64,000 nucleotides of DNA from a virus (IMGVR_UViG_3300022934_000004); one strand, 5' to 3'. Positions 5,702-52,923 are shown, counted from the first letter of the stretch. A program made the numbers and translations. Notes: generated from the letters alone by a model not told the origin.

Positions 5702-5953
5702 ATGGCACGTCAAGTAAGAGTAGATTTAAGCGATCACTTTGAAGCATGGAGAGAAAAAACAAATCTTCTTTCTCAATATATGGGTGATTTAGATAGGTTA
5801 ATTACACCAGAAGATTCTGATCTTGTTGGTGCTATTAATTCTGCTTATACGTATAGACAGGACTATTATACTGACACGACTGTAGTTTTAGTTAATTCAG
5901 CTGGCAGTATAATCAAAACAATGTATGTTTATGATAGTATTGGCGGCTTATAA
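5702..5953 (+). CDS. Small virion/fibre-associated protein (paralogue of 5979..6227)
   Basis: DLSDxxEAWREKTN and DSDLVGAIN motifs are shared with the next ORF; C-terminal NSAGSIIKTMY. Confidence 0.6.
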   Translation: MARQVRVDLSDHFEAWREKTNLLSQYMGDLDRLITPEDSDLVGAINSAYTYRQDYYTDTTVVLVNSAGSIIKTMYVYDSIGGL

Positions 5954-5956
5954 ATA
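5949..5956 (+). promoter_or_regulatory. T4-type late promoter TATAAATA
   Basis: Exact consensus 22 nt upstream of the ATG at 5979; gp55 is encoded in the window. Confidence 0.75.
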
Positions 5957-5978
5957 AAGAATAAAATGGGCGGATTAG

Positions 5979-6227
5979 ATGGCAAGAAAAATTTACGTAG
6001 ATTTAAGCGATACAATCGACGCTTGGCGGGAGAAAACAAATATTCTTGGTGCGAATAGTGGTGACTTAGATAATTTAATCACTACTGCAGATTCTGACCT
6101 CGTGGCTGCTATTAATGAAGTTTATAATTTTCAACCAATACGGGATGAGAATTTGCGCATTAGAAGGGCTGATGGAACTATTGCAAAAGATTTATATGGC
6201 TTCACAGCAGATTCATCCGGTGGTTAA
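5979..6227 (+). CDS. Small virion/fibre-associated protein (paralogue of 5702..5953)
   Basis: MARKIYVDLSDTIDAWREKTN...DSDLVAAINE closely matches the preceding ORF. Confidence 0.6.
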   Translation: MARKIYVDLSDTIDAWREKTNILGANSGDLDNLITTADSDLVAAINEVYNFQPIRDENLRIRRADGTIAKDLYGFTADSSGG

Positions 6228-6232
6228 TTATT

Positions 6233-7228
6233 ATGGCAAGAAGAAGACCGCTTAGAATAGATGATAGCGACAACCTAATAGAAATGTCTCTTGATGACAT
6301 GTTACAAGTTAGAAAACGTATAATTTCATTATACGGCGCCAATCCTTCTGTAACATTAGGTGTTGTTCCATCTGGTGGTAATTTACCAGGAGCTCCACTA
6401 TATGATAGAAGAACTGTTTCTGGTGGTGCTGTTTTAGCTGGAGATCCTCTTAAACCTTTAAGTACAATAGATGTTGCTTATAACAGAGTTGAACAATCAA
6501 TAGAAGATTCTAGTACAACTCCAACTTGTCCTGATACAAATCTTAGAGGATTTCCAGTTTATTTAAATGACAGCGATCACATCCAGGCGATGACTGATTC
6601 CGATTTTTATGATACCTTTATGGATTCAGCTATTGAGACACTTACGCTTACTGGCTGGGCAGATAGTACTCAAGCTGGAACATATGTAGTATCAACTACT
6701 CAATTTGTAGAAGATGCTGAACTTATATCAACTACTCCAATTTTTGTTAATACTATAGCAGATGTTGAAGCATTTGGAAGTGGCCCTTTGCCTGAAGATT
6801 CAGATCAGCCATTAGAATTAACTTCATACTATTTACATAGAATTAATCCAACTCGTGCAGAAAGTTTTAATTGTATTGTAATTGACGATTCAGATCATTT
6901 ACAAGAATTAACAGATTCAGATTTCGATGAATGTCTTTCTAAATCTATTCGATATTCAGCCGCAAGGCGACCTTTAAATCAAATAAGATATGCATGGGAT
7001 AGTGGTAATATTAGAACTACTGCTATTTTAGATACTGTTATCGATTCATCTGGTGGACCTGTTAGTGATTATGACGAATATGGTACATATGAAGTAGATT
7101 ATGAGTACACTCAGTACGATTCTGCGTTACCATATATAATTAGAGAAGATGGAACATATCGTCAAATTGTTCCAAGTGGAAGAGAAGCAATTTATAGAAG
7201 ATATTATTTGAAAATACAAAAGGTGTAA
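6233..7228 (+). CDS. Putative virion structural protein with three internal repeats (paralogue of 13460..14440)
   Basis: Shares NPSVxL..V.SGGNL, GTY.V.T, PI(F/Y).(N/D)T.A.V and (Y/W)YLH motifs with 13460..14440. Repeats are PLRIDDSDNL, PVYLNDSDHI and IVIDDSDHL. Confidence 0.55.
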   Translation: MARRRPLRIDDSDNLIEMSLDDMLQVRKRIISLYGANPSVTLGVVPSGGNLPGAPLYDRRTVSGGAVLAGDPLKPLSTIDVAYNRVEQSIEDSSTTPTCPDTNLRGFPVYLNDSDHIQAMTDSDFYDTFMDSAIETLTLTGWADSTQAGTYVVSTTQFVEDAELISTTPIFVNTIADVEAFGSGPLPEDSDQPLELTSYYLHRINPTRAESFNCIVIDDSDHLQELTDSDFDECLSKSIRYSAARRPLNQIRYAWDSGNIRTTAILDTVIDSSGGPVSDYDEYGTYEVDYEYTQYDSALPYIIREDGTYRQIVPSGREAIYRRYYLKIQKV

Positions 7229-7234
7229 TTTATA

Positions 7235-7702
7235 ATGGCAGTATTTAGTGGAAAGATTGTAGAAGCTAAATTCTTAGATCGTCAAAAAACAATGATAGAA
7301 ATCTTATATAAAGATGATGATAAAATTGTGGCGCATTCTATAGAAGTTGATTGGGAATTAAAAGATTTTCATGATTTATTAGAAGAAATGGATCTTGAAG
7401 ATATTGAAAGACAAACAATCATTAGAAATCAAGATTTAGCGGAACAAAAGAAAGCAGCTGTAAAAGCGGGTGTTGAAGCAAGATTATCAGATGGATTTAA
7501 AGAAAAAGCTACTGCAATTGATGTTTTAATAAAAGAAGTAATTGCTAATAGACACGATGAAAGTTTCTTATTTAAATTTAAAGCAGAAATATTTAAAATG
7601 GAAGAAGTAAGTCTTTCTTATAAATGGTTTAAAAAAAGAAAAATTCAGAAATCTAAAGATGCATTAGAAATTTTAGCTATATTATATAAAATTATAAAGT
7701 GA
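7235..7702 (+). CDS. Hypothetical protein
   Basis: 155-aa ORF tightly packed in the operon; charged and probably helical; no motif recognised. Confidence 0.55.
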   Translation: MAVFSGKIVEAKFLDRQKTMIEILYKDDDKIVAHSIEVDWELKDFHDLLEEMDLEDIERQTIIRNQDLAEQKKAAVKAGVEARLSDGFKEKATAIDVLIKEVIANRHDESFLFKFKAEIFKMEEVSLSYKWFKKRKIQKSKDALEILAILYKIIK

Positions 7703-7711
7703 TGGTTTATA

Positions 7712-8461
7712 ATGGGAAACAAAATCATTTACCTCAGGTGGGGTGAAAGATACACTGAAGAGCATGTATCACAATTATTCGATAAAGTAAATAAAAATTG
7801 TTCAGTTGATTTTGAATTTACTACAATTGAAAGTGTTCATCTTGGTGATGAATTTGATGAACTTGCAAAAGGTCAAAAAATTTGTTTTAGAGGAACGCAG
7901 GATCCAGAATCTTCAGTAACAGACAATCCTAATCAAGATTATTGTAGAGAAGACGCTGGTGGCATGGCTCATTGGCGTAAATATCTTATGTTTAACCGAG
8001 ATGTTGAGCAATTTAGTGAAGAAGATACTTTATTATATTTAGATTTAGATACACTTATAACTGGAGATTTAGCTTACTTTTTTGATTTAGATATGTCTAA
8101 GCCATATATTGCTCGAAGCTGGCAATTTGAAATAGACAATTTATGGAGAAAGCTCTATAATCTTAGAAGTTGTCCTTATTTTAATAGTTCAGTTTTAGTT
8201 TGGAAACCAGGTCAATGTTTACCTGTTTTTGATGAAATGATGAAACAATATTGGAATATGATGTTATCATATGGAAGCAATGATAATTGGCTATTCCATA
8301 GATTTGGGCCACATACTTTTTCAGATGAAAATAGAAACTTTTTTAATTGGTTTCCAAAATATACAGTAGCATCTGATTCTCGCTTTGTTAAAGAAGGCGA
8401 AACAATTATTCACACTTTAGCTGGATTAACTATGTCTGAAAAGAATAAATTATGTTTATAA
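7712..8461 (+). CDS. GT-A fold glycosyltransferase (GT8-like phage family)
   Basis: N-terminal WGERY..., DxD motif in LYLDLD, FNSSVLVW, and GSNDNWL at the equivalent of the G-D-Q motif. Confidence 0.7.
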   Translation: MGNKIIYLRWGERYTEEHVSQLFDKVNKNCSVDFEFTTIESVHLGDEFDELAKGQKICFRGTQDPESSVTDNPNQDYCREDAGGMAHWRKYLMFNRDVEQFSEEDTLLYLDLDTLITGDLAYFFDLDMSKPYIARSWQFEIDNLWRKLYNLRSCPYFNSSVLVWKPGQCLPVFDEMMKQYWNMMLSYGSNDNWLFHRFGPHTFSDENRNFFNWFPKYTVASDSRFVKEGETIIHTLAGLTMSEKNKLCL

Positions 8462-9102
8462 TAGATGATTACAATATTAATGATAGTTTAGTTGATAGTC
8501 TATTTGCATTAGATGAAAACTGTCCATGGATGAAAATTGATTTTTATAGATCATTATCTAAACGTAAATTACAAAAAAATATGTGGTTATATGATCAATT
8601 AACAAATGTTATACACGATCCAACTATAATGTCTAGAGTAAATTGGTTAGCGCCTGGTTTTTGTTATTATTCTTCTATAATTTTAGATAAATTGGGTTTC
8701 AAAGATATAAAATTTTATGATTATGATCCTTCAGTTAAATACGTTAATTATCAATCTACAAAATTAATTAAAAATGCAAATGTAGAACATATTATGTTAG
8801 ATGTAGTATTTGATAGAGAATTTATTAGAAAAGATCCAGATTTAGTAGTTTGTCTTTCTATGTCATCTCTTGGAAATGATTTTTTTATGCTTAATGAAAA
8901 TTATAAAAATAATCCTATGTTTGCTTTAATGGGTTCTAGTAAATGTAAACGAGGAAATATTCATGTTTTTGAGAGTATAGATAAATTCATAGAATCAACT
9001 GGAATTAAGAATATTTTATATTCCGGTGAAAAAAATATACATGGAGAAATTTATTATTTGGTAATAGGGCATAAGGAAGATGATGGATGCTACAAATTAT
9101 AG
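8452..9102 (+). CDS. Class I SAM methyltransferase-like protein (divergent)
   Basis: Rossmann-like order VNWLAPGFCY...IKFYDYDP...DVVFD...PDLVVC. Paralogous to 10547..11167 (shared VxFDxxxI, RGxI and C-terminal LVIG). Confidence 0.5.
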   Translation: MFIIDDYNINDSLVDSLFALDENCPWMKIDFYRSLSKRKLQKNMWLYDQLTNVIHDPTIMSRVNWLAPGFCYYSSIILDKLGFKDIKFYDYDPSVKYVNYQSTKLIKNANVEHIMLDVVFDREFIRKDPDLVVCLSMSSLGNDFFMLNENYKNNPMFALMGSSKCKRGNIHVFESIDKFIESTGIKNILYSGEKNIHGEIYYLVIGHKEDDGCYKL

Positions 9103-9782
9103 TTTCTAAGTGGGGAACATTATATGGTGAAGAATATATAGATCGCTTAAAAGAAAGAATTGAAAAAAATTGTAGTGTACCCTGGAATTTAACAGTTATA
9201 AGAGATCATGAAAATGGTTGGGGAGATTATAGTAAAAAACATTATAGAGGTGAAGGAGAACCAAAAGTAGTTCAAGGTGAAGGATTTCAAAATGGATATC
9301 ACCATTATAATTTAGGAGGAATTCCTTTATATAGAAAAATGTATCCATTTGGTATGGACGATCATTGTCATGAAGATGATACAATTATGATGATGGATAT
9401 AGATATGTTAATCACTGATGATTTAGCATATTTTACAACTTTATCTACTGATAAACCGTGGATTCAATTTGATTATGATACACCAGAATGGGAACTTATG
9501 GATGATTATAAAAATCAAAATATAACTCCGTTAAATAGTTCTGTAACAGTATGGCGAAAAGGTCAAATGAGACCAGTATACGATTTCGTTAATAAATTTA
9601 AAAATGAAGTATTTTTTACATATAGACGTGTCGATGCTTATCTTTGGTATTGTTGGGGAGTAAAAGACTTCTTTAATTATTTACCAGTTGAAGCTGTTGA
9701 TTGGTATTATAAAGGAACAAATGCAATTGTAAGAAATATGGCAGGTGAAAAGATTGAGTTGAAGAATGAAGTGGTTGTATAA
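9087..9782 (+). CDS. GT-A fold glycosyltransferase
   Basis: SKWGTLYG, MMDID (DxD) and LNSSVTVW; paralogue of 7712 and 9766. Confidence 0.7.
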   Translation: MLQIIVSKWGTLYGEEYIDRLKERIEKNCSVPWNLTVIRDHENGWGDYSKKHYRGEGEPKVVQGEGFQNGYHHYNLGGIPLYRKMYPFGMDDHCHEDDTIMMMDIDMLITDDLAYFTTLSTDKPWIQFDYDTPEWELMDDYKNQNITPLNSSVTVWRKGQMRPVYDFVNKFKNEVFFTYRRVDAYLWYCWGVKDFFNYLPVEAVDWYYKGTNAIVRNMAGEKIELKNEVVV

Positions 9783-10560
9783 TATAATGAATCCTAGACC
9801 TCCTAGAACGTCTACAAGCAAAAATAAAATAGTGTGTGCTCGATGGGGAAAACTCTATGGTGAAAAAGATATTGATGATTTATATGAAAAAGTGAAAAAG
9901 AATTGTTCAGTAGATTTTGATTTTGAAATATTTGATAACTTTAAAAAATATAAACATTGGGAAAGAGCAAAGAAAAAACATTATAGAGCTTCTTTACAAC
10001 CTGATGAAAGGTTCGATGCTGTTCAAAATGGTTATCACCGTGATGATTTTGGAGGAATTCCTCATTATCGTAAAATTACAATGTTTGACCAAGATAAAAA
10101 ATTTAATCCAGATGATACAATATTATATCTTGATCTGGATACAAATATTACTGGTGATTTAGCTTATTTTTTTGAAGAGATTAATCATGCTAGGCCATAT
10201 TTAGTTTGGAATTATTGGTGGGACAAAGATGATGGTATTGAGTGGAAAAGGCAATATCATGTTACTCGTTGTCCATTATTTAATAGCTCAGTTATGGTTT
10301 GGAAACCAGGTCAAAATGAAGCTATATATAATTTTGTAGAAAATAATTTAAATGAATGTTTTTATACTTATCCTTCTATGGATACTTTTATGTTCCATAA
10401 TTTTGGACCTTATAGTAATCCAGAAAGAAGAAATCATTTTAATTATTATGATGAAGGTATAGTCACTTCACAACGAGTATTAGGTCATGATAAGCCTGGG
10501 ATTATTAATATGCTCGAAGGGCTAAGTGCAGAAGAGAAACATAAACATGTATCACATTGA
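9766..10560 (+). CDS. GT-A fold glycosyltransferase
   Basis: CARWGKLYG, LYLDLD and FNSSVMVW; close paralogue of 7712..8461. Confidence 0.7.
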   Translation: MKWLYNIMNPRPPRTSTSKNKIVCARWGKLYGEKDIDDLYEKVKKNCSVDFDFEIFDNFKKYKHWERAKKKHYRASLQPDERFDAVQNGYHRDDFGGIPHYRKITMFDQDKKFNPDDTILYLDLDTNITGDLAYFFEEINHARPYLVWNYWWDKDDGIEWKRQYHVTRCPLFNSSVMVWKPGQNEAIYNFVENNLNECFYTYPSMDTFMFHNFGPYSNPERRNHFNYYDEGIVTSQRVLGHDKPGIINMLEGLSAEEKHKHVSH

Positions 10561-11167
10561 AGAAAAAGATGTAGATAGATTCCAAAAAATACTTGATCAA
10601 CTTAAACATACTTATCCATGGGATGGAATGCATGCTAATATCTGCGCTCAAGTAGGACCAATTGAATTTCAAATTCAAAAATGGTGGGCAGATAGAATAA
10701 ATTGTATAGATCAAAGAGTAGCTATTTTGAATGGTGGGATTGGTTATTTTTCAGTTCCCTTTGCATATGAAATGGGAGCTAAAAAAATAGATTTATATGA
10801 TATGGATCCAATCACAGAAAACTTAAGTTGGTATGTAAATGGAATATACAAACCTGAATTCGTTCACCATCAAAAAAATGTTATTTTTGATAAAAGAGAA
10901 ATTGATAACGCTGATGTGTACATAAATACTAGTTGTGAGCATAGTTATCATATGAGAGATATAATTCCATCAAATCGCCTTTGTGTAATGAGTGGAAATA
11001 ATTTAACAGCTAGAGGACATATAAATTTATTTAAGAATATGCGAGCGCTGAAAAAATCAGTAGGATTTAAAGATGTATTATATGAAACGACAATGGAATT
11101 TACATATCATGATGATATGGGAAAAAGACCATATAAACAATTTTTAGTAATAGGGATAAAATCATGA
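10547..11167 (+). CDS. Class I SAM methyltransferase-like protein
   Basis: VAILNGGIG (motif I), IDLYDMDP (motif II) and DVYINTSCEH. Start moved from the ORF track's 10526 to the ATG at 10547. Confidence 0.6.
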   Translation: MYHIEEKDVDRFQKILDQLKHTYPWDGMHANICAQVGPIEFQIQKWWADRINCIDQRVAILNGGIGYFSVPFAYEMGAKKIDLYDMDPITENLSWYVNGIYKPEFVHHQKNVIFDKREIDNADVYINTSCEHSYHMRDIIPSNRLCVMSGNNLTARGHINLFKNMRALKKSVGFKDVLYETTMEFTYHDDMGKRPYKQFLVIGIKS

Positions 11168-12066
11168 AAAAGAGAGTTATTTTTTCAATTTATATTGAAA
11201 TCCCTGAAGCACTTTTGGATGAAACAGGTTATTCAAAACATGCCGAGAAAAATACGCATAGAGGTGAAAGAGCTGGGGAAACTAAAGATAAGTTAAAAGC
11301 ATATAAAAATAGATTGATGTGGAATCAAAAATGGTATGCGGATCAATGTGATGCAGACTATCATATGTACACTTATGATAAACAGTTTTTAGAATATTAT
11401 CGTTATTGTAAAGGTGTTCACGATAAGCTTCCAATGTATCATATTGTAAATTATTATAAGAATCATTTGCTTCAAGAATTAGCGAAAACTTATGATGAAG
11501 TTTTTTATATGGATATTGATATTATTCCTAGAACAAAAGATAATATATTTGAAGTCCACAATATGAATAAGCTTTGGGCAAAGAATAATAATGATTTAGC
11601 TGAGTGGAGTAAGCACTACGATTTAACAAAATATAATAGTTGTGATAGAAACCCTGGTATAAAATATTGGAATTGTTATGCTCTTTTAGTTCAAAACGGA
11701 CATGATCCTGAAAACGACGTTATTAACACAGGAACAGTAATTGGCGGTAAAAAAGCAATTATGGCAATGAATTGGCAAGGGGAATTTGAAGGATTAGTTG
11801 CTGATATGTTAAAATTACAAGAAGATGAAGCAACAATGTTTCCTGAAGCACTACATTCAAGGTTTGCATTCGATAATGAAACCATGTTTAGTTATTTAGT
11901 AAAAACTAAAAAATTAAAGTATGATACTTTAGATGATATTTGGCATGGAAGATTGCCAGATGATGGAGTAGATCCAAGACATAAAATTATTCATGCTATT
12001 AATAAGAAGTTTGAATTAATTTGGGATGATGTTCCATATGATGGAAGAACTTTAGGAAAATCATAA
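11164..12066 (+). CDS. GT-A fold glycosyltransferase (GT34/GT8-like)
   Basis: YADQCDADY, YDEVFYMDID (DxD), INTGTV, DNETMFS and C-terminal IIHAINK. Confidence 0.65.
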   Translation: MKKRVIFSIYIEIPEALLDETGYSKHAEKNTHRGERAGETKDKLKAYKNRLMWNQKWYADQCDADYHMYTYDKQFLEYYRYCKGVHDKLPMYHIVNYYKNHLLQELAKTYDEVFYMDIDIIPRTKDNIFEVHNMNKLWAKNNNDLAEWSKHYDLTKYNSCDRNPGIKYWNCYALLVQNGHDPENDVINTGTVIGGKKAIMAMNWQGEFEGLVADMLKLQEDEATMFPEALHSRFAFDNETMFSYLVKTKKLKYDTLDDIWHGRLPDDGVDPRHKIIHAINKKFELIWDDVPYDGRTLGKS

Positions 12067-12779
12067 TGCCTATTACAACACATTCTTCAGGTGAGACTAA
12101 TCAAGCACAAAAAATATTTGTTTTCAGAATGGGAAAAAAATATGGTGAAGAGTATGAAGAATACTTAAACCGAAAACTAAAGGGAAGATATGATCTTGTT
12201 TGGATAAGAAATCCATTAGATTCAAAAGTAGCATTACAATGGAATAAAATGTTTCTTATGAATTTAGATTATATTGACCCCATTATTGTAATGGATATTG
12301 ATATTTTATTAGAAAATAATTTCCATGAATTATTTGAATATCCTATTCAAAGAGGTGAATTTTTATCAATTCCAGCGTGGTGGAATGAAAGAGCTGGATA
12401 TTTACTAAATGGCGGGTTTTTTAAATACTATCCTAAAGACTGTAAATACATTTTTGATGAATTTATTAATAATTCTAAGCATTGGCAATCACATTATATT
12501 AAAGAAGGTATTACAATAGGTCCAGTAAATGGTGAGCAATATTTTGTTGAAGATCAGGTTAAGAAACACTTAGATTTAAAGTTTGTCCCTAAGTCATGGG
12601 TAACTAGATGGACGAATGATAGTAGCAAAAATATGAAAATTGCTGATAGATGGAGAAAAAAGGTAGAAGATACACAATTATTTTACCATGAAAAAAATAA
12701 ATTTAACGAAAATGTGAAATTTGTTCATTTTACTACCTCTTTAAATAAACCGCACGAATCGAAATTATATAAATACTAG
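12066..12779 (+). CDS. GT-A fold glycosyltransferase
   Basis: MGKKYGEEY, QWNKM, VMDID (DxD), NGGFFK, GEQYFV and FVHFT. Confidence 0.7.
   Translation: MPITTHSSGETNQAQKIFVFRMGKKYGEEYEEYLNRKLKGRYDLVWIRNPLDSKVALQWNKMFLMNLDYIDPIIVMDIDILLENNFHELFEYPIQRGEFLSIPAWWNERAGYLLNGGFFKYYPKDCKYIFDEFINNSKHWQSHYIKEGITIGPVNGEQYFVEDQVKKHLDLKFVPKSWVTRWTNDSSKNMKIADRWRKKVEDTQLFYHEKNKFNENVKFVHFTTSLNKPHESKLYKY
12768..12775 (+). promoter_or_regulatory. T4-type late promoter TATAAATA
   Basis: Exact consensus upstream of the GAGG Shine-Dalgarno and the ATG at 12804. Confidence 0.75.
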
Positions 12780-12803: not shown

Positions 12804-13457
12804 ATGCCCAGAATTATAGATTTACCTTCAATTAGTGCAGATTCTGCCGATTCCGCAGATTGGCTCATTTTATACAATGTTGATGCAGCATCAAATGACG
12901 CTGTTAATAAAATTAGAGTTGATCAACTAGCTGAATTAACAGCAGGAGTTGCAGCTTATGGTGATTCTGACGTAGGAGTATATTTAGCTAATAGTGATTC
13001 AGCTAATCCTATACAAGTTGGGCAAATGGTCATAGATAGCGACCTTGTTGTTCTAGGTGACTTAAGAGTTTTAGGTACAACTACTACAGTTAGTAGCTCA
13101 AATTTAAGTATTTCAGATAAATTACTAATATTAGCTGATAGTGCATTAACACCAACTGATGCTGATGGTGGTGGTATTCAATTAAATGGTGCTGATGCTA
13201 CATTACTATATCAACAATCAGATGATACATGGAATTTTAATAAAAACTTAGAATATCCAAATAGATTTTCATTAACTGACACAGATTCATTAAATGAAGG
13301 AACTACAAACTTATATTATAGTTCTGCAAGATTTGATTCCGATTTAACTAATGCAGATTCGTCAATTACTTCTAGTCAATTAGCTTCTGCTGTTTCTTTA
13401 ATCATTTATGATTCTGCTGGATCTGCTATAAAGACGTTGTATGGTGCAGGAGTTTAA
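12804..13457 (+). CDS. Short tail-fibre-like structural protein
   Basis: GDLRVLGTTTTVSSSNLSISDK fibre motif and a TDSLNEGTTNLYY repeat unit, both also in the 3003-aa fibre; C-terminal YDSAGSAIKTLYG. Confidence 0.6.
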   Translation: MPRIIDLPSISADSADSADWLILYNVDAASNDAVNKIRVDQLAELTAGVAAYGDSDVGVYLANSDSANPIQVGQMVIDSDLVVLGDLRVLGTTTTVSSSNLSISDKLLILADSALTPTDADGGGIQLNGADATLLYQQSDDTWNFNKNLEYPNRFSLTDTDSLNEGTTNLYYSSARFDSDLTNADSSITSSQLASAVSLIIYDSAGSAIKTLYGAGV

Positions 13458-13459
13458 GT

Positions 13460-14440
13460 ATGGCTGGCAATCCTTTAGTATGGGACACATCATCTGAAGA
13501 TGTACGTCCAGCAAGTGCTGCACACGTTATAAACTTAATTGAAAGAGGAATTTTTCACTATAGCTCTAATCCTAGTGTGCAATTAAGTTATGTTGCATCT
13601 GGTGGTAATTTAAATTCTATTGATGACACAAGATATGCACCTAGCGCAGGTTTATCTAGAGTTGATAGATTTCCAACACCAGCTGAAACTGGAGCAGTTG
13701 ACCTTATTACTGTATCACAGCAAAAAATACAACAAACAAAGGCAACTGTAACAAAGCCAACAAATACTAAGCCTTTAGCTTATGTTACAAATACTGGAAA
13801 TATTAGAGCTCTTCCTATTGATGAAGCAGTTGAAATATTAGTAAAACCTGCAATTGATAAGTTAAATGATAAAACAGCTATTGCAGATGATAATCGCGGT
13901 GGAACTTATTTTGTTACTACATCAGTTTCAGCAACAGATGCTGATAATGTTTCATCCCAACCAATATACACTGATACTAATGCAAATGTTTCTTTTTATG
14001 ATGCAGAAAGATCTGGAAATGGATTATTCGTTTCAGCAGATACTCCAACCACTAACACTTCTTGGTATTTGCATAAACAAAAAGCAGATGCTTTTGATAG
14101 AAATTTAACTGGAACAGCTGGAGGGGATGTAAATAGATATCCTCTTTATATTACACCATCTGGTGATTTAAGACATTACACTATTGCTGAATACGATAAT
14201 TTTATTGGTGAATTAATTAGATGGGCTGCTGTAAATTTATCAGGTTACATATTAGATTATCAAGTTAGCACTTCTTCTGTTGATAATACGTATAGAAGTT
14301 CAACAATTACTAATACTTTAGTTGATAGTTCAAAACACTTTACTGAACAAATAGGTCCAGATGATTATAGAGGACAATCAATTCCTCAAGGTACTGCAAC
14401 CTTAATAAATTCTTATTATCTTACCCTTTCTAAAAGCTAA
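13460..14440 (+). CDS. Putative virion structural protein (paralogue of 6233..7228)
   Basis: Collinear similarity to 6233..7228 along its length, ending IPQG...YYL. Confidence 0.55.
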   Translation: MAGNPLVWDTSSEDVRPASAAHVINLIERGIFHYSSNPSVQLSYVASGGNLNSIDDTRYAPSAGLSRVDRFPTPAETGAVDLITVSQQKIQQTKATVTKPTNTKPLAYVTNTGNIRALPIDEAVEILVKPAIDKLNDKTAIADDNRGGTYFVTTSVSATDADNVSSQPIYTDTNANVSFYDAERSGNGLFVSADTPTTNTSWYLHKQKADAFDRNLTGTAGGDVNRYPLYITPSGDLRHYTIAEYDNFIGELIRWAAVNLSGYILDYQVSTSSVDNTYRSSTITNTLVDSSKHFTEQIGPDDYRGQSIPQGTATLINSYYLTLSKS

Positions 14441-14512: not shown

Positions 14513-14878
14513 ATGGCCCAATATGAAGAATTCACCTTAGCTCAAGGTGCAGACATAGCAATTGAGCTACATTTAGTAGACGACCAAGGATCTCCAAAAG
14601 ATCTGACAAACCATACGGTTTCGGCACGACTACAAAAATCATATACATCTACATCTTATACTGATTTCAATTCAATAGTTGCAAGCCCACCTTCTGACGG
14701 TATTGCTACTATATCACTAACTAATGTTCAAACTGAAGCTTTAGAAAAGGGACGTTATGTTTATGATGTCATACTTTCTTTTGTTGATAGCGCTGGTGAT
14801 ACAATAGCTGAAAGGCTGTTAGAAGGAAGAGTTCAAGTGACACCAAATGTCACACCAACTCCGGGAGGCAGTGAATAA
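14513..14878 (+). CDS. Small Ig-like virion structural protein (BppU N-terminal-like)
   Basis: QGAD...DLTNHTV...KSY...G.ATISLT..QT..L..GRYVYDV...RLLEG.V.VTP, a common pattern in marine T4-like phages; AGGAG Shine-Dalgarno. Confidence 0.65.
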   Translation: MAQYEEFTLAQGADIAIELHLVDDQGSPKDLTNHTVSARLQKSYTSTSYTDFNSIVASPPSDGIATISLTNVQTEALEKGRYVYDVILSFVDSAGDTIAERLLEGRVQVTPNVTPTPGGSE

Positions 14879-17800
14879 ATGGCTGAAATAACACTAACTT
14901 CTCAAGGCCGAACAACTGTAGTTAAAAAGGTTATAATTGGAACTCCAGTTAGAAGAGTTACATCTGGTTCGTTTAGTATTTTTAATATTTCAGGTATTTC
15001 AGCTGTCGGATCTAGTCATAACGATCTTCTTGTTTTTGATTCATCTACTGGCAATTATGAAAATGAAAGTACGCTTCGTGTTTTAAAAGTAGATGATTTT
15101 ACAATTGACAGTAACTCAATAAGTGCTACTGGCGATATAAACATCTTTGCTACACAACTTAATATTTCAGCTCCAGTTGAAGCAACATCATTCAAGCAAA
15201 CTCAATTAGGTGCTTTTGATGATTCTGATCTAACAAGTAAAATTTATGTAGACACTGAAGTTGAAAGAGTTAAACATGTTATTTTTACTACAGATGATGG
15301 ATTTACAGATTCTGTTCAAATTTATAATGATGAAGATATAAAAGTAATTGGTGGAACTGGTCTTAAAACTTCTGCTACAAAAATTGGAACTCAATATCAA
15401 TTAACAATTGATTTAGATAGTTCTGGTATAGTAACCGGAACTTATGGTACTGCTACTTCAGATGTTTCAGCTGATTTTTCTAAAGGCCAGCAGATTACAT
15501 CAAGTAATTTGCAACAAAATTTTGCAGGAGCTCCAAGTCAATCACAATTTAATAATGATGGTACTAAATGGTTTGTTATTGGAACTAATGGTTCTTTTGA
15601 TGAAGAATTTGAAGAATGGGATTTAAGTACACCATACGATTTATCTACTGCTACATTTAGTCAAAGTGTATCAAGAGATATGGGCGGAGAAACAAACGGC
15701 GCCCAAGCGATGACGTTTAACAATGATGGTACAAGCTTATTAGTTTTTGTAAGAAGACCAGGCGGGTCAAGCCCAAGAGCAATATCTTATACCTTTACAT
15801 TAGGCACAGCATATGATATAAGCACTTTATCTGCTGTACCTGGTAGTTTCAAATCCACAAATGATTATGGTGTAACAGGAACTGATAAAGGATATGCTTG
15901 GAATAATGATGGAACTAAATTATTTGCGGTATCTCATACTCAAAATTTAGCTGTTATTGATGTTAGTACTCCTTATGATATTAGTACGCAAACATCATAT
16001 AATGATTATCACCCAACAGATATTGATTCAAATATTACTGCAAATGCTCTGTGGGGTATAGCGTTTGATAATAATGGTTCAACTCTTTACTTGTTGGAAA
16101 GTAATGATACCACAAATGAAATATTCAAACTAACATTATCGACACCATACGATGTAACTACTGCTACATTAGATGAAGTGTTGGATATTGATGAAACTAG
16201 TTCATATGATATATCTTATCCAAAAAGTTTAGTAACAACGCCTGATCATCTAATTGTATATGGCACAACATCTGGAAGTGAACAATACACATATATTACT
16301 AAACCTTCAGGTGGCTCTGGCAATTATGGCCTTACAATACCTATTCTTCAATTTGATTCATCTGGAATATTATCTGGTGTTACAGTATCTGATCCTATTA
16401 CAACAGATAATGTTAGAGAAGGCGACTCAAATTTATATTATACTACAGCTAGATTTGATGATAGATTAGACGATAGTAGTTCTATTTCAACTATACGTAG
16501 TATGTTCTCTCCTGGCGGAGATATGGTATATGATTCAATTAACGGTATCTTTTCAGTTAATGTTCTTGCTAGCTATAACTCAGAAAACTTTGATTCTGAC
16601 TTAGATGATGCTTTAGCTAATAGTCAAAATATTGTATATAATGATTCATTAAATTCATTTGACTTAACTGCTATAAATGAATCGAATGCTGGTACATTTG
16701 GGTCAACAACTGAGGTTCCAATTCTTCATGTTGATTCATATGGTAGAATTGATAGTATTAGTACTGCTTCAATTTCATCAACATTGAGAATTAGTGCTGA
16801 TAATTCAGCTGTTGCTATTCCTGCTGATACATCTATTGAATTTAATGCAGGAAAATACTTATCTGTATCCGCTGCAGATGCAGATAGTGCTTTTGGGCCA
16901 GATGGATGGTCGATTGATTTTTGGTATAAAAAAGATTCAAACACTACAGCTGGCGGGACTGGAATGTTCCAAGATGGTATTATCAACCAGCACGGCCATT
17001 TTGTTATATTTGATAACACAAATAATGGTGTTTCTACACTTGCTATTGCTGGTTCAAAAGATAACACTGGATCAAATTTTTGGTCGGCGAATACTAACAC
17101 TGTAACAACAACAAACTGGAATCATTTCCATGTTGGTTATGATGGAACAACTGTTAGAGTATTCGTTAATGGAACATTAGATAATAGTGTAACCACTACA
17201 TCTTATCATGGTCCCGTAACAGGAGGAACAGCACCTTTAAATATCGGCGCAAGATCTGGTGGCGTTGGCGCAACTGTAACAGAGGTTTTGGCTGGACAAC
17301 TAGCAGATGTTCACATACAAACAGGAACTGGTGGTGTTAAAACTAGTAACTTTAGTACTCCAACAGGAACACCTGGTGCAACAAGTAATTCTTTAATTCT
17401 ATTATATGGCTCAAGTTCAGGTTGGCAAAATGCCACTTCTACTACAGTAACAGAAGCTGGAACTGGCAACGCTGTTACTACAAATACTCTACCATACACT
17501 GCAGGTTCTGCTATTAGTAGTGGTGTAGATTCGATAAATCTTGGTACTGATTTTTTCAATATTTCAGGCCAACCTGATAATATCATTACAACAGTAACAG
17601 ATAATGGTATTAATATACGCTTAGATAGTGGTCAAACCTCACACAATTCTGTTTTAGGTGCAGTGCAGCCAGGATTATATACGTATGGTGGTGGGTCGTC
17701 TATTGCGCGAGTTTCAGTTAATGAGTTTGGTATTGTTAAACACATAGACGCAACTGACATTCAGGCGGAAATAACTCTTAAAAATGAAAATAATACAGAA

Positions 17801-33787: not shown

Positions 33788-34264
33788 ATGGTAGCAGGTG
33801 TATTAGATTTAGCAGCACTTACATCAGCAGGTGCGTATGATACGATAGAATTGCATACTGAGGTTGGAACTTTATCATCCAGTGCTACTATGACAATTTC
33901 TGCAACATCATCTAACGTTAATTATCATGAATTAAAAATTCTTCAAAGTTTGTACGTATGTAGTATAGATGCAAATAGTGATCCGCAGATTGCTCCTGGT
34001 TTAGAACTTGTAGAAGGATCTGTTGGTACTGAACATGTTACTAATACGGGCAATACAGGTTATTTTGTAAGGCCCGCTTTTTGGTTTGGATTTGGAGAAA
34101 CTTGGCATTATGTAGATAAAGCAAAACCTATATATTTAGAATCAGATCCTACAAGTACTTCAGATTGGAAGCCTCTTCAACAAGCAATTATACGAAGATA
34201 TGATGGATCAAGTGGAGATTTTGATATTATCGCATGTTATGCTCTTATAAGGAGATCTAAATAA
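33788..34264 (+). CDS. Small beta-rich virion protein, paralogue 1 of 6
   Basis: LKILQSLYVCSID...VDKAKPIYLE pattern shared with the following ORFs. Confidence 0.55.
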   Translation: MVAGVLDLAALTSAGAYDTIELHTEVGTLSSSATMTISATSSNVNYHELKILQSLYVCSIDANSDPQIAPGLELVEGSVGTEHVTNTGNTGYFVRPAFWFGFGETWHYVDKAKPIYLESDPTSTSDWKPLQQAIIRRYDGSSGDFDIIACYALIRRSK

Positions 34265-34698
34265 TGGCTAATCCAGTTGATTTTTTAAATGTAAGTGAAA
34301 TTGTTCCACATTCAAAAGATTTAAATATCACTTCAAATGGTGCTTGGAATATTTTAATTTCTGGTACCAATATGGGTAGTAATAATGATGGTGGTGCAGC
34401 GCGCAATGGCATGACAACATCTTTAACTATTGAAAATCGTAGAGATTCAGATGCTACGTTTTCAATGAGAGTTTATGATGGTAGCACTCACCGAACAATG
34501 TTTAATAGAACAGGAATTGCTGGACATAGTGTATTACAAATTTTAGATAAACACACACCTGTTGTTATTGTGAGAGATAGTCCAGGGCAAGGTGCAAATT
34601 CCACTGGAATAGAACAAATACAATTTAGACTAGATTCGGGAGTAACTAATCATTTAACAGCACAAGTTCAATACTTTTTATTTGATAGCGGGACTTAA
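34264..34698 (+). CDS. Small beta-rich virion protein, paralogue 2 of 6
   Basis: FLNVSEI...TSLTIEN...ILDKHTPVVI; TAATG stop-start overlap. Confidence 0.55.
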   Translation: MANPVDFLNVSEIVPHSKDLNITSNGAWNILISGTNMGSNNDGGAARNGMTTSLTIENRRDSDATFSMRVYDGSTHRTMFNRTGIAGHSVLQILDKHTPVVIVRDSPGQGANSTGIEQIQFRLDSGVTNHLTAQVQYFLFDSGT

Positions 34699-37489: not shown

Positions 37490-37499
37490 GAGAAGATAA

Positions 37500-49397: not shown

Positions 49398-49405
49398 TAT
49401 AAATA
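49398..49405 (+). promoter_or_regulatory. T4-type late promoter TATAAATA
   Basis: Exact consensus, with a second GATAAATA at 49409-49416 before the AGGAG Shine-Dalgarno. Confidence 0.8.
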
Positions 49406-49426
49406 ATTGATAAATAGGAGATAATA

Positions 49427-49934: not shown

Positions 49935-49938
49935 AACA

Positions 49939-50595
49939 ATGAAGCTTATTGCAGAATATATTGATCAAGAAATTGGATACGTTACTGAAGCAAAAGGTGA
50001 CGGTAGTAAATCATATACTATTGAAGGTATATTTGCACAAGCTGAAGGTAAAAATCGTAACGGTAGAGTATATCCAAAGGCTGTTATGGAATCAGCCGTT
50101 GACAAATACGTTACGGAACAAGTTAATACTAAGAGAGCTGTTGGTGAATTAAACCATCCAGATGGTCCAACAGTAAACTTAGATAAAGTTTCTCATCGCA
50201 TTACAGAACTTGATTGGGATGGTAATAATGTGATGGGCAAAGCGCTTATATTAGACACACCGATGGGTAATATCGTAAAAGGTTTATTAGAGGGTGGTGT
50301 ACAACTGGGCGTTTCAACTCGTGGTATGGGAAGTCTTGAGCAAAGGAACAATGCAATGTATGTTAAGGATGATTTTATGCTTAACACTGTTGACATCGTT
50401 CAAGATCCATCTGCACCTGATGCATTTGTTAATGGGATTATGGAAGGTGTTGAATGGGTTTGGAATAATGGAATTATTCAAGCACAAGAAATTGAAAGAA
50501 TGGAGACTGAAATTAAACAAGCTCCGCGTACTTACTCTTATGAGACACAAGTTCGTGAGTTCAAAAATTTCCTCTCGTTACTGAAAAATAAATAA
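49939..50595 (+). CDS. gp21: Prohead protease
   Basis: IEGIFAQAE.KNRNGRVY, GELNHP, GVSTRGMGSL and DIVQDPSAPDAFV. Confidence 0.96.
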   Translation: MKLIAEYIDQEIGYVTEAKGDGSKSYTIEGIFAQAEGKNRNGRVYPKAVMESAVDKYVTEQVNTKRAVGELNHPDGPTVNLDKVSHRITELDWDGNNVMGKALILDTPMGNIVKGLLEGGVQLGVSTRGMGSLEQRNNAMYVKDDFMLNTVDIVQDPSAPDAFVNGIMEGVEWVWNNGIIQAQEIERMETEIKQAPRTYSYETQVREFKNFLSLLKNK

Positions 50596-50605
50596 GGAGT
50601 CAAGC

Positions 50606-51580
50606 ATGACTGATCAAATCGAAGAGCATGATCTTGAGCTCAATGAAAACGAGGAAATCGTTGATGAAGCTCACGATCCTAAAAATGCGGAAAGCCAGAG
50701 TGTAGCTTCTGTGGATGCGGCTGGATCTAAAACCGGTACTGCTAAAAAGCGTAAAGGTGATAAGTCCAATTCTGAAAAAGCAGATAAACATACTCCAGGT
50801 GATCCTGATAAACACACAGCAAGCGTAAGAGATGCTGGTGCACAACCAAAAGAAGATTACGATTTTTCTGATGATTTAAGTGCACTTATTTCTGAAGAAG
50901 CAACTCTATCTGAGGGTTTCAAAGATAAAGCAGCTCTAATTTTCGAAGCAGCAATTAATTCTAAAGTTGCCGCTGAAGTAAATCGCTTGGAAGAGCAGTA
51001 CGAAGAACAATTGTCAGAAGCTTTAAAAACCGAAAAAGAAGAAATGGTTGAAAAAGTAGATGGCTATTTGAACTACGTAGTTGAACAATGGATGGAAGAT
51101 AATAAACTTGCAATCCAAAACGGTCTACGTGCAGAAATTGCTGAGAACTTTATGAGCCAGTTGAAAGACTTGTTTGTAGAATCTCACATTGATGTACCAG
51201 ACGAAAAAGTTGACCTAGTTGACGACCTATCTGAGCATGCAGAAGAACTAGAAGAAGCACTTAACAAAGAGATCGAAACATCTATTGCGTTGAAAGAAGC
51301 CTTAGAAGCTCTTCAGCGTAAAGATATTCTCCGCGAAGCTTCCAAAGAACTTGCAGATACTCAAGCTGCTAAGCTTGAAGATTTGGCTGAAGGTGTTGAA
51401 TTTGAATCAGCAGAGAAATTTGCTGAAAAAGTTGCAACATTAAAAGAGTCATATTTCAAATCTGAAAACAAAACCTCTGAGTCTATGACTGAAGAAGTTG
51501 AGGACGATGAAGGTACTGTTGAAGAAGTATCAGAAGCAATGAGCCAGTATGTCTCAGCTCTCAAAAGAACTCATAAATAA
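50606..51580 (+). CDS. gp22: Prohead core scaffold protein
   Basis: LSEGFKDKAALIFEAA...VDGYLNYVVEQWMEDN...LKESYF. Confidence 0.93.
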   Translation: MTDQIEEHDLELNENEEIVDEAHDPKNAESQSVASVDAAGSKTGTAKKRKGDKSNSEKADKHTPGDPDKHTASVRDAGAQPKEDYDFSDDLSALISEEATLSEGFKDKAALIFEAAINSKVAAEVNRLEEQYEEQLSEALKTEKEEMVEKVDGYLNYVVEQWMEDNKLAIQNGLRAEIAENFMSQLKDLFVESHIDVPDEKVDLVDDLSEHAEELEEALNKEIETSIALKEALEALQRKDILREASKELADTQAAKLEDLAEGVEFESAEKFAEKVATLKESYFKSENKTSESMTEEVEDDEGTVEEVSEAMSQYVSALKRTHK

Positions 51581-51591
51581 GGGAAATACAA

Positions 51592-52923
51592 ATGGAAAAT
51601 AATATCCAATACCAAGCAATGATGGAAAAGTGGGCTCCTGTTCTTAACGAGGAATCTGCTGGAAACATCAAAGACGCCCATCGTCGCGCGGTGACTGCAA
51701 TGGTTCTTGAGAACCAAGAAAAAGCACTTCGCGAAGAAGGTCTGATTGCAGAAGCAGTTCCAGGAAATAACACTACTTCCGCTGCTAACTGGAATCCAAT
51801 TCTAATCTCACTTGTACGTCGTGCAATGCCAAACATGATGGCATACGATGTATGTGGTGTTCAGCCAATGACTGGCCCAACTGGCTTGATCTTCGCAATG
51901 AAGTCACGCTACGATGGCGGTGATACTTCAAATACTGAAGCACTATTTAACGAAGCAGACACTAAATTCTCTGGTGATTCTTCTGCTACACACGGTGCTG
52001 ATGGTTCTGGTCTATCTGGTCTAACCGACTCAAACTCTGACTCTTCTATCGATAATGATAGAACTGGTCCAAGCTTTGGTGGCGGTATGGATACAGCAGA
52101 CGCTGAAGGACTTGGTTCATCTGGTGCCGGTCCAGCATCTTCTTTCAACGAAATGGGTTTCACCATTGAAAAAGCAACTGTGACTGCGAAGTCACGTGCG
52201 TTGAAAGCAGAGTACAGCCTAGAGCTTGCTCAAGATCTTAAAGCAATCCACGGGTTGGATGCTGAGACAGAATTAGCAAACATTCTGTCAACTGAGATCT
52301 TGGCTGAAATCAACCGCGAAGTAATTCGTACAATCAACAGCCAAGCTAAAACTGGTGCAGGTACTGCTAACACTGCAATCAATGGTATCTTCGATCTTTC
52401 TACAGATGCAGATGGCCGTTGGTCAGTTGAGAAGTTCAAAGGCTTGATCGTTCAACTAGAGCGTGAAGCAAACACAATCGCAAAAGAAACTCGTAGAGGT
52501 CGTGGTAACTTTATCATCACTTCTTCTGATGTTGCTTCTGCATTGTCTGCAACAGGTATGTTGGATTACGCACCAGCGCTATCTACAAACTTGAATGTTG
52601 ACGACACAGGCAACACATTTGCTGGTGTTCTTAACGGTCGTACTCGTGTATACATCGACCCATATGCAACTGTTGATTATATCACAGTTGGATACAAAGG
52701 TACTAACCCATATGACGCAGGCGTATTCTACTGCCCATACGTTCCACTAACAATGGTACGTGCTGTTGGGGAAGAAACCTTCCAACCAAAAATTGGTTTC
52801 AAAACTCGTTACGGCATGGTTTCAAACCCATTCGTAGGTGCAACACCATCAGATGGTCTAGCAGCAGCGAAATCAAACCAATACTACAGAATCTTCCGTG
52901 TCGACAATATCTTGACTACGTAG
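51592..52923 (+). CDS. gp23: Major capsid protein
   Basis: EKWAPVL, LISLVRRAMPN, GVQPMTGPTGLIFAM, KSRALKAEYSLELAQDLKAIHGLDAE and FQPKIGFKTRYG. Confidence 0.98.
   Translation: MENNIQYQAMMEKWAPVLNEESAGNIKDAHRRAVTAMVLENQEKALREEGLIAEAVPGNNTTSAANWNPILISLVRRAMPNMMAYDVCGVQPMTGPTGLIFAMKSRYDGGDTSNTEALFNEADTKFSGDSSATHGADGSGLSGLTDSNSDSSIDNDRTGPSFGGGMDTADAEGLGSSGAGPASSFNEMGFTIEKATVTAKSRALKAEYSLELAQDLKAIHGLDAETELANILSTEILAEINREVIRTINSQAKTGAGTANTAINGIFDLSTDADGRWSVEKFKGLIVQLEREANTIAKETRRGRGNFIITSSDVASALSATGMLDYAPALSTNLNVDDTGNTFAGVLNGRTRVYIDPYATVDYITVGYKGTNPYDAGVFYCPYVPLTMVRAVGEETFQPKIGFKTRYGMVSNPFVGATPSDGLAAAKSNQYYRIFRVDNILTT

Follow-up and report, generated by a model that had tools for sequence, protein, structure and literature searches.

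Virions of mycobacteriophages are reportedly glycosylated by phage-encoded glycosyltransferases (GTs; Freeman et al. 2023, Cell Host Microbe 31:1216). The GT genes of these phages adjoin structural genes, and a cytoplasmic action of the enzymes on virion proteins of the same phage has been proposed. The chlorovirus PBCV-1 encodes a host-independent, multi-enzyme glycosylation machinery that includes multi-domain enzymes; the capsid protein of this virus carries the glycans in N-linkage on Asn. Autotransporter heptosyltransferases glycosylate the AIDA-I/TibA adhesins in the cytoplasm at many Ser residues, and the retaining glycosyltransferases of family GT8, among them glycogenin and LgtC, have a GT-A fold and a DxD motif.

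Here we analyse a 64,000 nt stretch of viral DNA (IMGVR_UViG_3300022934_000004, called the window in the following), for which an earlier note had proposed that the phage modifies Ser in Asp-Ser (DS) sites across its particle. We find that in this marine T4-like phage and its uncultured relatives a two- to three-fold DS excess in tail-fibre and baseplate-edge proteins is usually accompanied by a late block of GT genes in the fibre module, which suggests fibres that are sugar-coated at the DS serines. The mycobacteriophage systems are similar in that GT genes adjoin structural genes and in the proposed cytoplasmic action on virion proteins, but the phage is of another lineage with other hosts, its GTs form a different and larger set, and a short D-S site is proposed. 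Targets in mycobacteriophages are said to be capsid and tail-tube subunits, whereas capsid, tube and sheath of this phage are without DS bias, and fibres and baseplate periphery are the candidates. The candidate machinery resembles that of PBCV-1 in being virus-encoded and built from several enzymes, and an 862-aa multi-domain GT recalls the multi-domain enzymes of that virus. To AIDA-I/TibA the likeness lies in repetitive fibrous surface proteins with many Ser and a dedicated cytoplasmic enzyme encoded alongside; the enzyme family is different, and this is analogy only. GT8 enzymes share the GT-A fold, the DxD motif and a weak Pfam match with the phage enzymes, but the match is under the Pfam gathering score, and the small viral-only families carry an extra insert.

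A late enzyme cassette within the tail-fibre module

All genes given with coordinates in the following are on the + strand. A cassette of seven enzyme genes (7712..12779), five GT-A and two methyltransferase-like (MT-like), was recognized by paralogy, fold and DxD motif; fibre genes of the same orientation flank it on both sides, and the synteny of cassette and fibres is conserved across relatives. The GT-A genes at 7712-8461, 9087-9782 and 9766-10560 are paralogues of each other. The gene at 11164-12066 is GT8-like according to the protein atlas, and relatives of the gene at 12066-12779 cross-match a GT8-like profile. None of the seven cassette proteins is DS-rich.

The 264-aa product of 9766-10560 was modelled by AF2 (pLDDT 82) as a Rossmann-like GT-A fold, and a Foldseek search of the PDB with this model gave 118 matches at E<=0.001, led by A64R, LARGE1, XXYLT1, UGGT, LgtC and glycogenin. 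The best match, A64R (PDB 2p6w; E 2e-6, TM 0.66 by target, identity only 14%), is a capsid-glycosylating enzyme of PBCV-1, a eukaryotic virus, and glycogenin, among the next matches, glycosylates protein; the acceptor is not indicated by the fold. D123 and D125, which form the DxD motif, are invariant in the 21 members of the family, and DxD is also present in the products of 11164-12066 and 12066-12779 and in the X2 family. The product of 7712-8461 scored 21.7 bits against Pfam PF01501 (GT8), below the gathering cut-off of 24.3; no Pfam match was found for the other small GTs of the cassette, and PF01501 is carried by 3 of 71 homologue clusters. As judged from paralogy, this model and the motifs, the cassette is real and its GTs are enzymes of the GT-A fold.

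Further downstream, directly upstream of the neck genes, a three-domain glycosyltransferase of 862 aa is encoded (38560..41148), with a GT1-type, a GT2-type and a third, Anp1-like domain. Pfam matches to Glycos_transf_1 (1.4e-13) and Glycos_transf_2 (3.8e-11) are both above the gathering scores, and more distant full-length relatives (44-56% identical) are encoded on other viral contigs, where the neighbouring genes are different. The two MT-like genes (8452-9102 and 10526-11167) are weakly indicated: searches with a profile of the family reached no better than E 0.04-0.25, with spermidine synthases and METTL6 as matches, and there is no Pfam match. A 289-aa protein (53524..54393) once called sulfotransferase-like matched no Pfam family at E 0.01 and no PDB sequence better than E 0.2, and this identity is not supported.

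The cassette enzymes are always preceded by a conserved 155-aa protein (p155; 7235..7702), which a profile search placed in front of the enzymes in all cassette variants. Neither PDB nor Pfam gave a match to p155, and the atlas gave weak leads to tail-fibre-chaperone-like families. A 121-aa tail-fibre-assembly-like protein (14513..14878) matches phrog_1084 (E 9e-21) and phrog_3304 (E 2e-16; annotated 'L-shaped tail fiber protein assembly') and keeps its position directly upstream of the fibres in relatives.

Late promoter-like TATAAATA sites are found 29-73 nt ahead of eight starts. One is located at 5949, between two small paralogous genes, and another at 12768, ahead of the gene for a 217-aa fibre-like protein. 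Since no TATAAATA site is present within 5979-12767, the cassette is co-transcribed with structural genes and belongs to a late-type transcription unit within the fibre module.

DS excess in fibre and baseplate-periphery proteins

DS enrichment was determined protein by protein as observed versus expected numbers from shuffled sequences. The modular 3003-aa tail fibre (14879..23890), which includes a LamG domain, contains 77 DS versus 29.4 expected (z 9.7), making DS the most over-represented of all 400 dipeptides, while SD (15 versus 29) and DT (15 versus 30) are depleted. That S-D is rare in this fibre and that composition alone does not explain the bias had been suspected from inspection, and both views are supported: the excess persists after shuffling, after masking of internal repeats (22 versus 9.9 in the non-repeat half) and when first repeat copies only are counted (39 versus 15.9). 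The proportion of TCN to AGY codons is the same for DS serines as for all Ser, and DS-coding hexamers occur almost exclusively in frame. The bias is therefore a protein-level feature, and the use of both Ser codon families suggests that the sites arose independently many times. These data demonstrate that the DS bias is real, Ser-specific and robust to repeat correction.

Enrichment was also found for a 331-aa protein (6233..7228; 12 versus 3.3) consisting of a hairpin-plus-helix unit in three copies, for the 217-aa fibre-like protein (12804..13457; 10 versus 3.5), which has modules in common with the big fibre and matches PHROG virion structural families, and for a 144-aa protein (34264..34698; 4 versus 1.0, p 0.01). 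The enrichment is marginal in a 1759-aa structural protein without Pfam match (26124..31403; 20 versus 12.9, p 0.03). Two small paralogous proteins of 83 and 82 aa (5702..6227; 49% mutual identity) have 2 DS each, and their longer orthologues in relatives (150-180 aa) have 8-11 versus about 2 expected. The window start cuts a gp8-like baseplate wedge protein, of which the C-terminal part is left (3..539; weak Pfam Phage-Gp8 match); its full-length orthologues typically have 8-11 DS versus about 3 expected.

No DS enrichment was seen in shuffle tests for gp18 (6 versus 3.4), gp23 (3 versus 2.0), gp15 (2 versus 1.4), a 791-aa collagen-like fibre (2 versus 6.4), the 862-aa GT (2 versus 3.7) and the 1646-aa VrlC-like large structural protein (551..5491; Pfam DUF4815, E 2e-55; 9 versus 10). 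The latter served as internal negative control, with 1.12x pooled over 115 orthologues. The hand counts of the earlier note were exact for these proteins (gp18, 6; gp23, 3; gp15, 2), for the DS-rich ones (12, 10, 77 and 20 in the 331-, 217-, 3003- and 1759-aa proteins) and for replication-type genes (UvsW, 0; gp44, 1; gp46, 5). Its statement that virion proteins are dense in DS applies to fibres and baseplate-periphery proteins and fails for gp18, gp23, gp15, the VrlC-like protein and the collagen-like fibre. Modification across the particle is not borne out, because gp18, gp23 and gp15 are not enriched; capsid, sheath and neck proteins lack the bias, which is confined to fibre and baseplate-periphery proteins and thus narrower than first claimed. 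Pooled, the fibre-class proteins of the window have 130 DS versus 53 expected, and the remainder of the window is DS-poor (52 versus 76). Non-virion proteins show no DS avoidance relative to cassette-free phages, which counts against glycosylation of DS sites.

To describe the site we used 252 non-redundant proteins (88 kaa) encoded downstream of VrlC in cassette-bearing loci. DS is again the most over-represented dipeptide (1443 versus 649 expected, 2.22x, z 31), with DT at 0.79x, ES at 0.48x and SD at 1.08x. Of these pairs DS alone is favoured, as expected of a Ser-specific transferase. The residue following DS is most often Ala (28%, 3.7x), then Asp (20%, 2.6x) and Ser (12%); a hydrophobic residue is preferred at -1 and Val/Ile three residues after the Ser.

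The Bacteroidetes O-glycosylation sequon, D-(S/T)-(A/I/L/V/M/T), which had been put forward as a model, likewise places Asp before a hydroxyl residue and allows Ala, the commonest following residue of the phage sites; 42 of the 77 DS sites of the 3003-aa fibre fit its +1 rule. However, the sequon accepts Thr, which the phage sites avoid, Asp is the second commonest +1 residue in the phage proteins, and the Bacteroidetes system is periplasmic and modifies exported proteins, while folding and assembly of virion proteins are cytoplasmic. SAR11 (Pelagibacter), OM43 (Methylophilales) and cyanobacteria are the hosts of the nearest cultured relatives, with no pointer to a Bacteroidetes host. The analogy to general O-glycosylation of the Bacteroidetes type thus does not hold.

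Co-occurrence of DS excess and cassette in relatives

We compared fibre-like proteins of IMG/VR relatives, most of them on incomplete contigs, between loci with and without a visible cassette. The median DS ratio (observed/expected) was 2.3 for fibre-like proteins adjoining a cassette (n=27) and 1.0 for loci without a visible one (n=7), a difference with p 0.006 when phylogeny is not corrected for. At least 6 changes to or from the cassette-free state are required on the VrlC tree, so that several separate contrasts contribute. Both the synteny of cassette and fibres and this statistical association are thus observed across relatives. Exceptions occur in both directions: DS-rich fibres without visible cassette in L098, L101 and L112 (11-57% complete where rated; L112 unrated), and a cassette with DS-neutral fibres in L024, L087, L051 and C48C1. 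The expected co-occurrence is therefore seen in the medians and broken by three and four exceptions, and enrichment in relatives lacking the GTs, which would speak against the proposal, is found in part, on contigs that are incomplete or unrated.

Fibres of cyanophages, Melnitz, HTVC008M and C48C1 showed no significant DS enrichment, the largest HTVC008M fibre being borderline (12 versus 7.0, p 0.05), and cultured relatives without cassette have DS-neutral fibres. No record in the phage collection had both a cassette and DS-rich fibres. Among orthologous fibres the Ser of DS is conserved in 78% versus 61% for other Ser (p 4e-5). Since cassette and fibres are physically linked, co-occurrence could also reflect co-inheritance.

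Alternatives to glycosylation of DS sites

In one lineage of fibre modules, DS could serve structurally to form turns, helix caps and the corners of shaft repeats, with the enzymes acting elsewhere, e.g., on the host envelope, so as to prevent re-adsorption or superinfection, or on a free glycan. The cassette would then travel with the fibre modules as an exchangeable unit, and co-occurrence would mean linkage, not function. Asp and Ser classically occupy hairpin turns and helix N-caps for structural reasons, and in the AF2 model of the 331-aa protein (pLDDT 82; no fold match in the PDB) DS is placed at hairpin turns and helix N-termini/N-caps, which fits a structural role as well. The preferred flanks of DS resemble strand-turn geometry, and in the 3003-aa fibre the shaft repeats are dense in DS whereas inserted globular domains such as LamG (residues 665-814) have few, which counts against glycosylation. 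The same holds for shared modules that retain some DS motifs in the cassette-free locus L050 (LADSA, NLYYT..RADSD), LADSA being present in all relatives compared, and for the exceptions to co-occurrence. The position following VrlC is a hot spot at which unrelated enzyme islands occur, and gp8-like proteins are about 2x DS-enriched even where the locus has a different island. GT-A or GT8-like enzymes act more often on lipo-oligosaccharide or glycans. Among the literature found, the usual interpretation of GTs in marine phages is that they modify the host surface or DNA (PMC12801897).

A purely structural need, however, should allow Thr, Asn, Gly or Asp, while the phage proteins are enriched in Ser alone and depleted in DT. 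Other residues are indeed used by homologous cyanophage fibre modules, where Asp is retained but Asp, Ala or Thr replaces Ser, and by a DS-poor paralogue of the 331-aa protein (326 aa; 13460..14440; 26% identity over the full length; DS 1 versus 2.6 expected), which has other turn or cap residues at the equivalent positions. This all-or-none difference between paralogues (12 versus 1 DS), and the bimodal DS ratio of the 331-aa family across relatives (0-0.7 or 1.5-4.3), indicate that the fold does not need DS. The bias moreover appears at once in unrelated folds, i.e., the gp8-like protein encoded on the opposite side of VrlC, the alpha/beta fold of the 331-aa protein, the small proteins and several types of fibre module, and DS positions turn over from genome to genome, as seen for the gp8-like orthologues, while density is maintained. 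Considering both sides, we regard a purely structural role as a serious rival, though somewhat less probable than glycosylation.

The DS serines might also serve a chemistry unrelated to the cassette, such as the binding of divalent cations from sea water by clusters of Asp and Ser, or a different modification, e.g., phosphorylation. The frequent DSD, with Asp at +1 in a fifth of sites, the site conservation above background and the partly cassette-independent enrichment of gp8-like proteins would agree with this. Ala as the commonest +1 residue is ill-suited to metal binding, neither a kinase nor any other enzyme turned up as a candidate, and the association with the cassette is left unexplained, which makes such a role unlikely. 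Composition, internal repeats or a motif at the DNA level as the mere source of the bias can practically be dismissed: half of the 3003-aa fibre is internally repetitive, with 32 of its 77 DS sites in one alignment-linked group, but the bias outlasts shuffling, repeat masking and restriction to unique sequence, uses both Ser codon families in frame, and recurs in divergent relatives and unrelated proteins.

A possible glycan coat on the fibres

Our leading reading, to which we give slightly less than even chances, is a fibre-restricted O-glycosylation of Ser. Cytoplasmic GT-A glycosyltransferases, made late in infection from genes inside the tail-fibre module and probably acting together with the MT-like partners, would attach and extend a sugar chain on the Ser of hydrophobic-Asp-Ser-(Ala/Asp) sites in fibre and baseplate-edge proteins, before or during particle assembly. 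Through selection for many sites, precisely these proteins would have come to a DS density increased two- to three-fold, and capsid, sheath and replication proteins would be left untouched. We infer that protein is the acceptor and the Ser of DS the attachment site; the MT-like enzymes may methylate the glycan, and the coat may protect the fibres or tune adsorption.

It is conceivable, and we suggest it with some reserve, that a widespread uncultured clade of marine T4-like phages carries a p155-headed late cassette of two to nine enzymes that O-glycosylates DS serines of fibres and baseplate-edge proteins. If true, these phages would bear a phage-made, possibly methylated glycan coat on their host-recognition apparatus. 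As cassette genes are gained, lost or swapped, this coat would become more diverse, and the target proteins would gain or shed sites accordingly.

DS is enriched in fibre and baseplate-edge proteins

The earlier note had reported that the dipeptide Asp-Ser (DS) is dense in virion proteins, and all of its hand counts were exact on recount. We judged enrichment by shuffling the sequence of each protein separately; by this measure the bias holds for the fibre and baseplate-edge proteins, but does not extend to the whole particle. DS is enriched in the 3003-aa fibre (77 versus 29.4 expected, z 9.7), the 331-aa protein (12 versus 3.3), the 217-aa protein (10 versus 3.5) and the 144-aa protein (4 versus 1.0), marginally so in the 1759-aa protein (20 versus 12.9, p 0.03), and shows no excess over expectation in gp18, gp23, gp15 and the VrlC-like, collagen-like and 862-aa proteins. 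In the 3003-aa fibre DS ranks first among the 400 dipeptides, SD and DT are depleted, and 30% of the Asp residues are followed by Ser.

As the leading explanation, with a chance not far from even, we consider that a block of small enzyme genes inside the fibre module (the cassette) performs O-glycosylation of fibre-class proteins at the serines of DS; its enzymes would act late, in the cytoplasm. The main rival, a real possibility but well short of even, is that DS is a structural motif of one lineage of fibre modules and that the cassette was co-inherited and has another target. Three further causes are ruled out: a general proteome bias by the DS-poor remainder of the window (52 versus 76 expected, against 130 versus 53 in the pooled fibre class), inflation by repeats as the sole cause by the excess that persists after their removal, and a DNA-level motif or codon-pair bias by the Ser codons of DS, which mirror overall Ser usage. 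Internal repeats make up half of the fibre, and DS is still found 22 times versus 9.9 expected in the non-repeat half, and 39 times versus 15.9 when only first repeat copies are kept. Both TCN and AGY codons encode the Ser of DS, in the proportions of all Ser, and the hexamers are nearly always in frame. Persistence of the bias in non-repeat sequence and in both codon families, with hexamers in frame, places the signal at the protein level, with many origins.

Gene order and enzymes of the module

All genes of the window are on the + strand. Its right half carries T4-type morphogenesis and replication genes (gp13 to gp23, gp3, uvsY, uvsW, gp55, gp47/46, gp45 and gp44). We named these by their synteny with the genes of Phage C48C1, which at about 70% nucleotide identity is the nearest record and is followed by Kyanoviridae myoviruses of Pelagibacter, Methylophilales and cyanobacteria. 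The left half opens with the C-terminal part of a gp8-like baseplate protein. The VrlC-like protein (1646 aa, DUF4815) and a pair of small paralogues come next, then the 331-aa protein (6233-7228), the conserved 155-aa protein p155 (7235-7702) and, directly after it, seven small enzyme genes. Downstream of these, the 217-aa protein (12804-13457) is encoded, then a paralogue (326 aa) of the 331-aa protein, a protein resembling tail-fibre-assembly proteins, and the 3003-aa fibre with more fibre-like proteins. One of these (791 aa, 31407-33782) contains about 10 collagen triple-helix repeat stretches (Pfam E 1e-67) and is DS-poor (2 versus 6.4), and two glycine-rich proteins are encoded somewhat 3' of it (36236-38531). 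An 862-aa three-domain glycosyltransferase (GT; 38560-41148) is encoded just 5' of the neck genes. The sequence TATAAATA is overall not more frequent in the window than expected by chance; 10 of its 12 sites are on the coding strand, eight of these ten 29-73 nt 5' of a start codon. No site lies inside 5979-12767, which makes late co-transcription of the cassette with its neighbours probable.

The count of six GT genes in the earlier note was confirmed (five in the cassette and the 862-aa protein, whose GT1-type and GT2-type domains exceed the Pfam thresholds). Its methyltransferase reading of two genes is tentative, drawn from weak profile matches (spermidine synthase, METTL6), and neither Pfam nor PDB sequences supported its sulfotransferase reading of 53524-54393. 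The genes starting at 7712, 9087 and 9766 are mutual paralogues, and those at 8452 and 10526 form a second paralogous pair. For the 264-aa GT (9766-10560), an alignment of 21 homologues gave a confident fold (pLDDT 82), with the PBCV-1 glycosyltransferase that modifies the capsid of that virus as best PDB match (E 2e-6). Further matches are GT8-type glycogenin, LgtC, XXYLT1, UGGT and LARGE1, and the DxD aspartates are invariant in the family. The 300-aa product of the 11164 gene is GT8-like according to the protein atlas, and the 12066 family cross-matches a GT8-like profile. A tblastn search with the 264-aa GT gave no match among 50,697 phage records; a profile search detected distant family members in the phages Mosig and C48C1. 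PDB sequence searches with profiles of p155, the 300-aa GT and the X1 family described below gave no match.

Full-length relatives of the 862-aa GT (44-56% identity, L132-L136) are found on other viral contigs in other gene contexts, with neighbouring genes mostly on the opposite strand, and the gene appears from these contexts to move between unrelated viruses. This comparison covered the 44-56% relatives, which give no information on DS; two copies with 92% identity (L130, L131) also exist.

The module and its DS site in relatives

In profile-guided scans of IMG/VR the GT family turned up in 35 loci, and the VrlC C-terminus served as the anchor for 80 loci. Even at a VrlC identity of about 37%, loci still show the order gp8-like, VrlC, small protein(s), 331-like, p155, two to nine enzymes, fibre-assembly-like and fibres. 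Within the module p155 is the most constant marker and heads every cassette variant; it belongs to no recognisable family, and weak atlas leads point to tail-fibre-chaperone-like DUF4376 and XkdW. Some loci carry another enzyme pair, X2 (a GT-A enzyme with DxD) and X1 (with W-H-N-N as an invariant motif). X1 proteins measure about 205-230 aa. The family is accompanied by X2 in every case and occurs at L084:8020-8655, L113:10627-11238, ten more loci and in C48C1 (L011:22323-23030); its invariant residues are W-H-N-N, Y-N, G-W and H, it has no Pfam or PDB sequence match and may be an enzyme of the cupin-like or oxygenase-like kind. Where relatives lack the GT cassette, a different enzyme island fills the same slot 3' of VrlC (L059:12754-21043; also L108, L115, L121 and L118). 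Its products are a cupin/JmjC-like protein, a 2OG-Fe(II) oxygenase and two radical-SAM proteins, of which one has a B12-binding domain; the island of pelagiphage Mosig (L012:28205-46023) encodes an epimerase, a carbamoyltransferase, an aminotransferase and a radical-SAM protein. Modification enzymes seem to have a hot spot in this slot, beside the fibre genes.

Among 252 non-redundant proteins encoded 3' of VrlC in cassette-bearing loci, DS was again the top dipeptide (1443 versus 649, z 31), with DT at 0.79x, SD at 1.08x and ES at 0.48x of expectation. The site follows the pattern hydrophobic-D-S-(Ala 3.7x, Asp 2.6x)-x-(Val/Ile), and Lys, Arg, Gln and Tyr are disfavoured after the Ser. VrlC orthologues are DS-neutral (1.12x). 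In homologous modules of cyanophages the Asp is kept and the Ser is replaced by Asp, Ala or Thr.

Co-occurrence of the cassette and DS-rich fibres

Considering fibre-like ORFs only, the median DS ratio (observed/expected) was 2.3 in loci with the cassette (n=27; 24 of 27 at 1.3 or above) and 1.0 in loci without a visible cassette (n=7: 0.76, 0.86, 0.89, 1.00, 1.68, 2.21, 2.29; Mann-Whitney p 0.006, phylogeny not corrected for). A quick VrlC tree requires six or more changes to account for the cassette-free state, so the contrast does not reflect one single event. Profiles of the GT, p155 and X2 gave no match in several cassette-free contigs, as far as their sequence was available (10-84% complete; the positive control worked), and the GT family was not found in the complete genomes of the phage-collection records checked (Melnitz, HTVC008M and two cyanophages, except MbCM1). 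Fibres of Melnitz, HTVC008M and two cyanophages are DS-neutral, HTVC008M being borderline.

Several observations count against the link. Fibres are DS-rich in L098, L101 and L112, where no cassette is visible, and L024, L087, L051 and C48C1 have the cassette or a p155-X1-X2 set, yet DS-neutral fibres; no other motif stands out in these four. Cassette-free L050 retains DS in the modules it has in common with this phage, and gp8-like proteins are about twofold up in DS even where the other enzyme island fills the slot. The motif LADSA is present in every relative compared. A relative depletion of DS in non-virion proteins was not found (core genes 0.78x here, 0.71-1.02x in cassette-free isolates); these ratios speak neither for nor against avoidance of the site. 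As a side observation, the major capsid protein gp23 of Melnitz (L123:25261-26544) is DS-rich (7 versus 1.6 expected, P 0.001), although the GT-family profile has no match in this phage and its fibres are DS-neutral.

Position and evolution of DS

A confident AF2 model of the 331-aa protein (pLDDT 82, pTM 0.78) consists of three hairpin-plus-helix units and had no Foldseek match in the PDB at E <= 0.1. DS is located at each of the three hairpin turns and at the N-terminus of the next helix, positions for which Asp and Ser are well suited by structure alone. Within the fibre, the shaft repeats are rich in DS and the inserted globular domains are poor in it, which also counts against a trans-acting cause.

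A trans-acting cause is favoured by the preference for Ser alone after Asp and by the joint bias of unrelated folds. We also count the evolution of the sites in its favour. In the gp8-like family DS positions turn over while density is maintained, and of the roughly two dozen columns in which DS recurs, only one shows wide conservation. The 331/326 paralogues are all-or-none (12 versus 1 DS), and across genomes the 331 family is bimodal (0-0.7x or 1.5-4.3x). In orthologous fibres 78% of DS Ser are conserved versus 61% of other Ser (p 4e-5), and 82% of DS Asp versus 68% of other Asp.

Precedents and implications

The earlier note took the Bacteroidetes O-glycosylation sequon as its model, which does not fit: Thr is disfavoured, Asp is frequent at +1, there is no sign of such a host, and that system is periplasmic, whereas the proposed phage modification would be cytoplasmic. 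A mycobacteriophage study cited in PMC12801897 is reportedly a precedent for virion glycosylation; to our knowledge, virion self-glycosylation by phage enzymes is known from mycobacteriophages alone. Outside phages it occurs in giant viruses of eukaryotes. In the literature searched, virion glycosylation was not reported for any T4-like or marine phage, and GTs of marine phages are mostly interpreted as modifiers of the host surface or of DNA (PMC12801897).

If the structural reading is true, the result is still a clean lineage-wide motif bias of modest interest. If the cassette does glycosylate DS serines, this would be the first T4-like case of virion self-glycosylation, the first to affect the host-selecting fibres, and the first with a short recognisable site legible from sequence, and DS density would be a cheap genomic marker for finding more cases. 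Abundant myoviruses of SAR11, OM43 and cyanobacteria are relatives of this phage, and such a glycan coat on the fibres could therefore matter in the sea, affecting adsorption, host range, virion decay and grazing.
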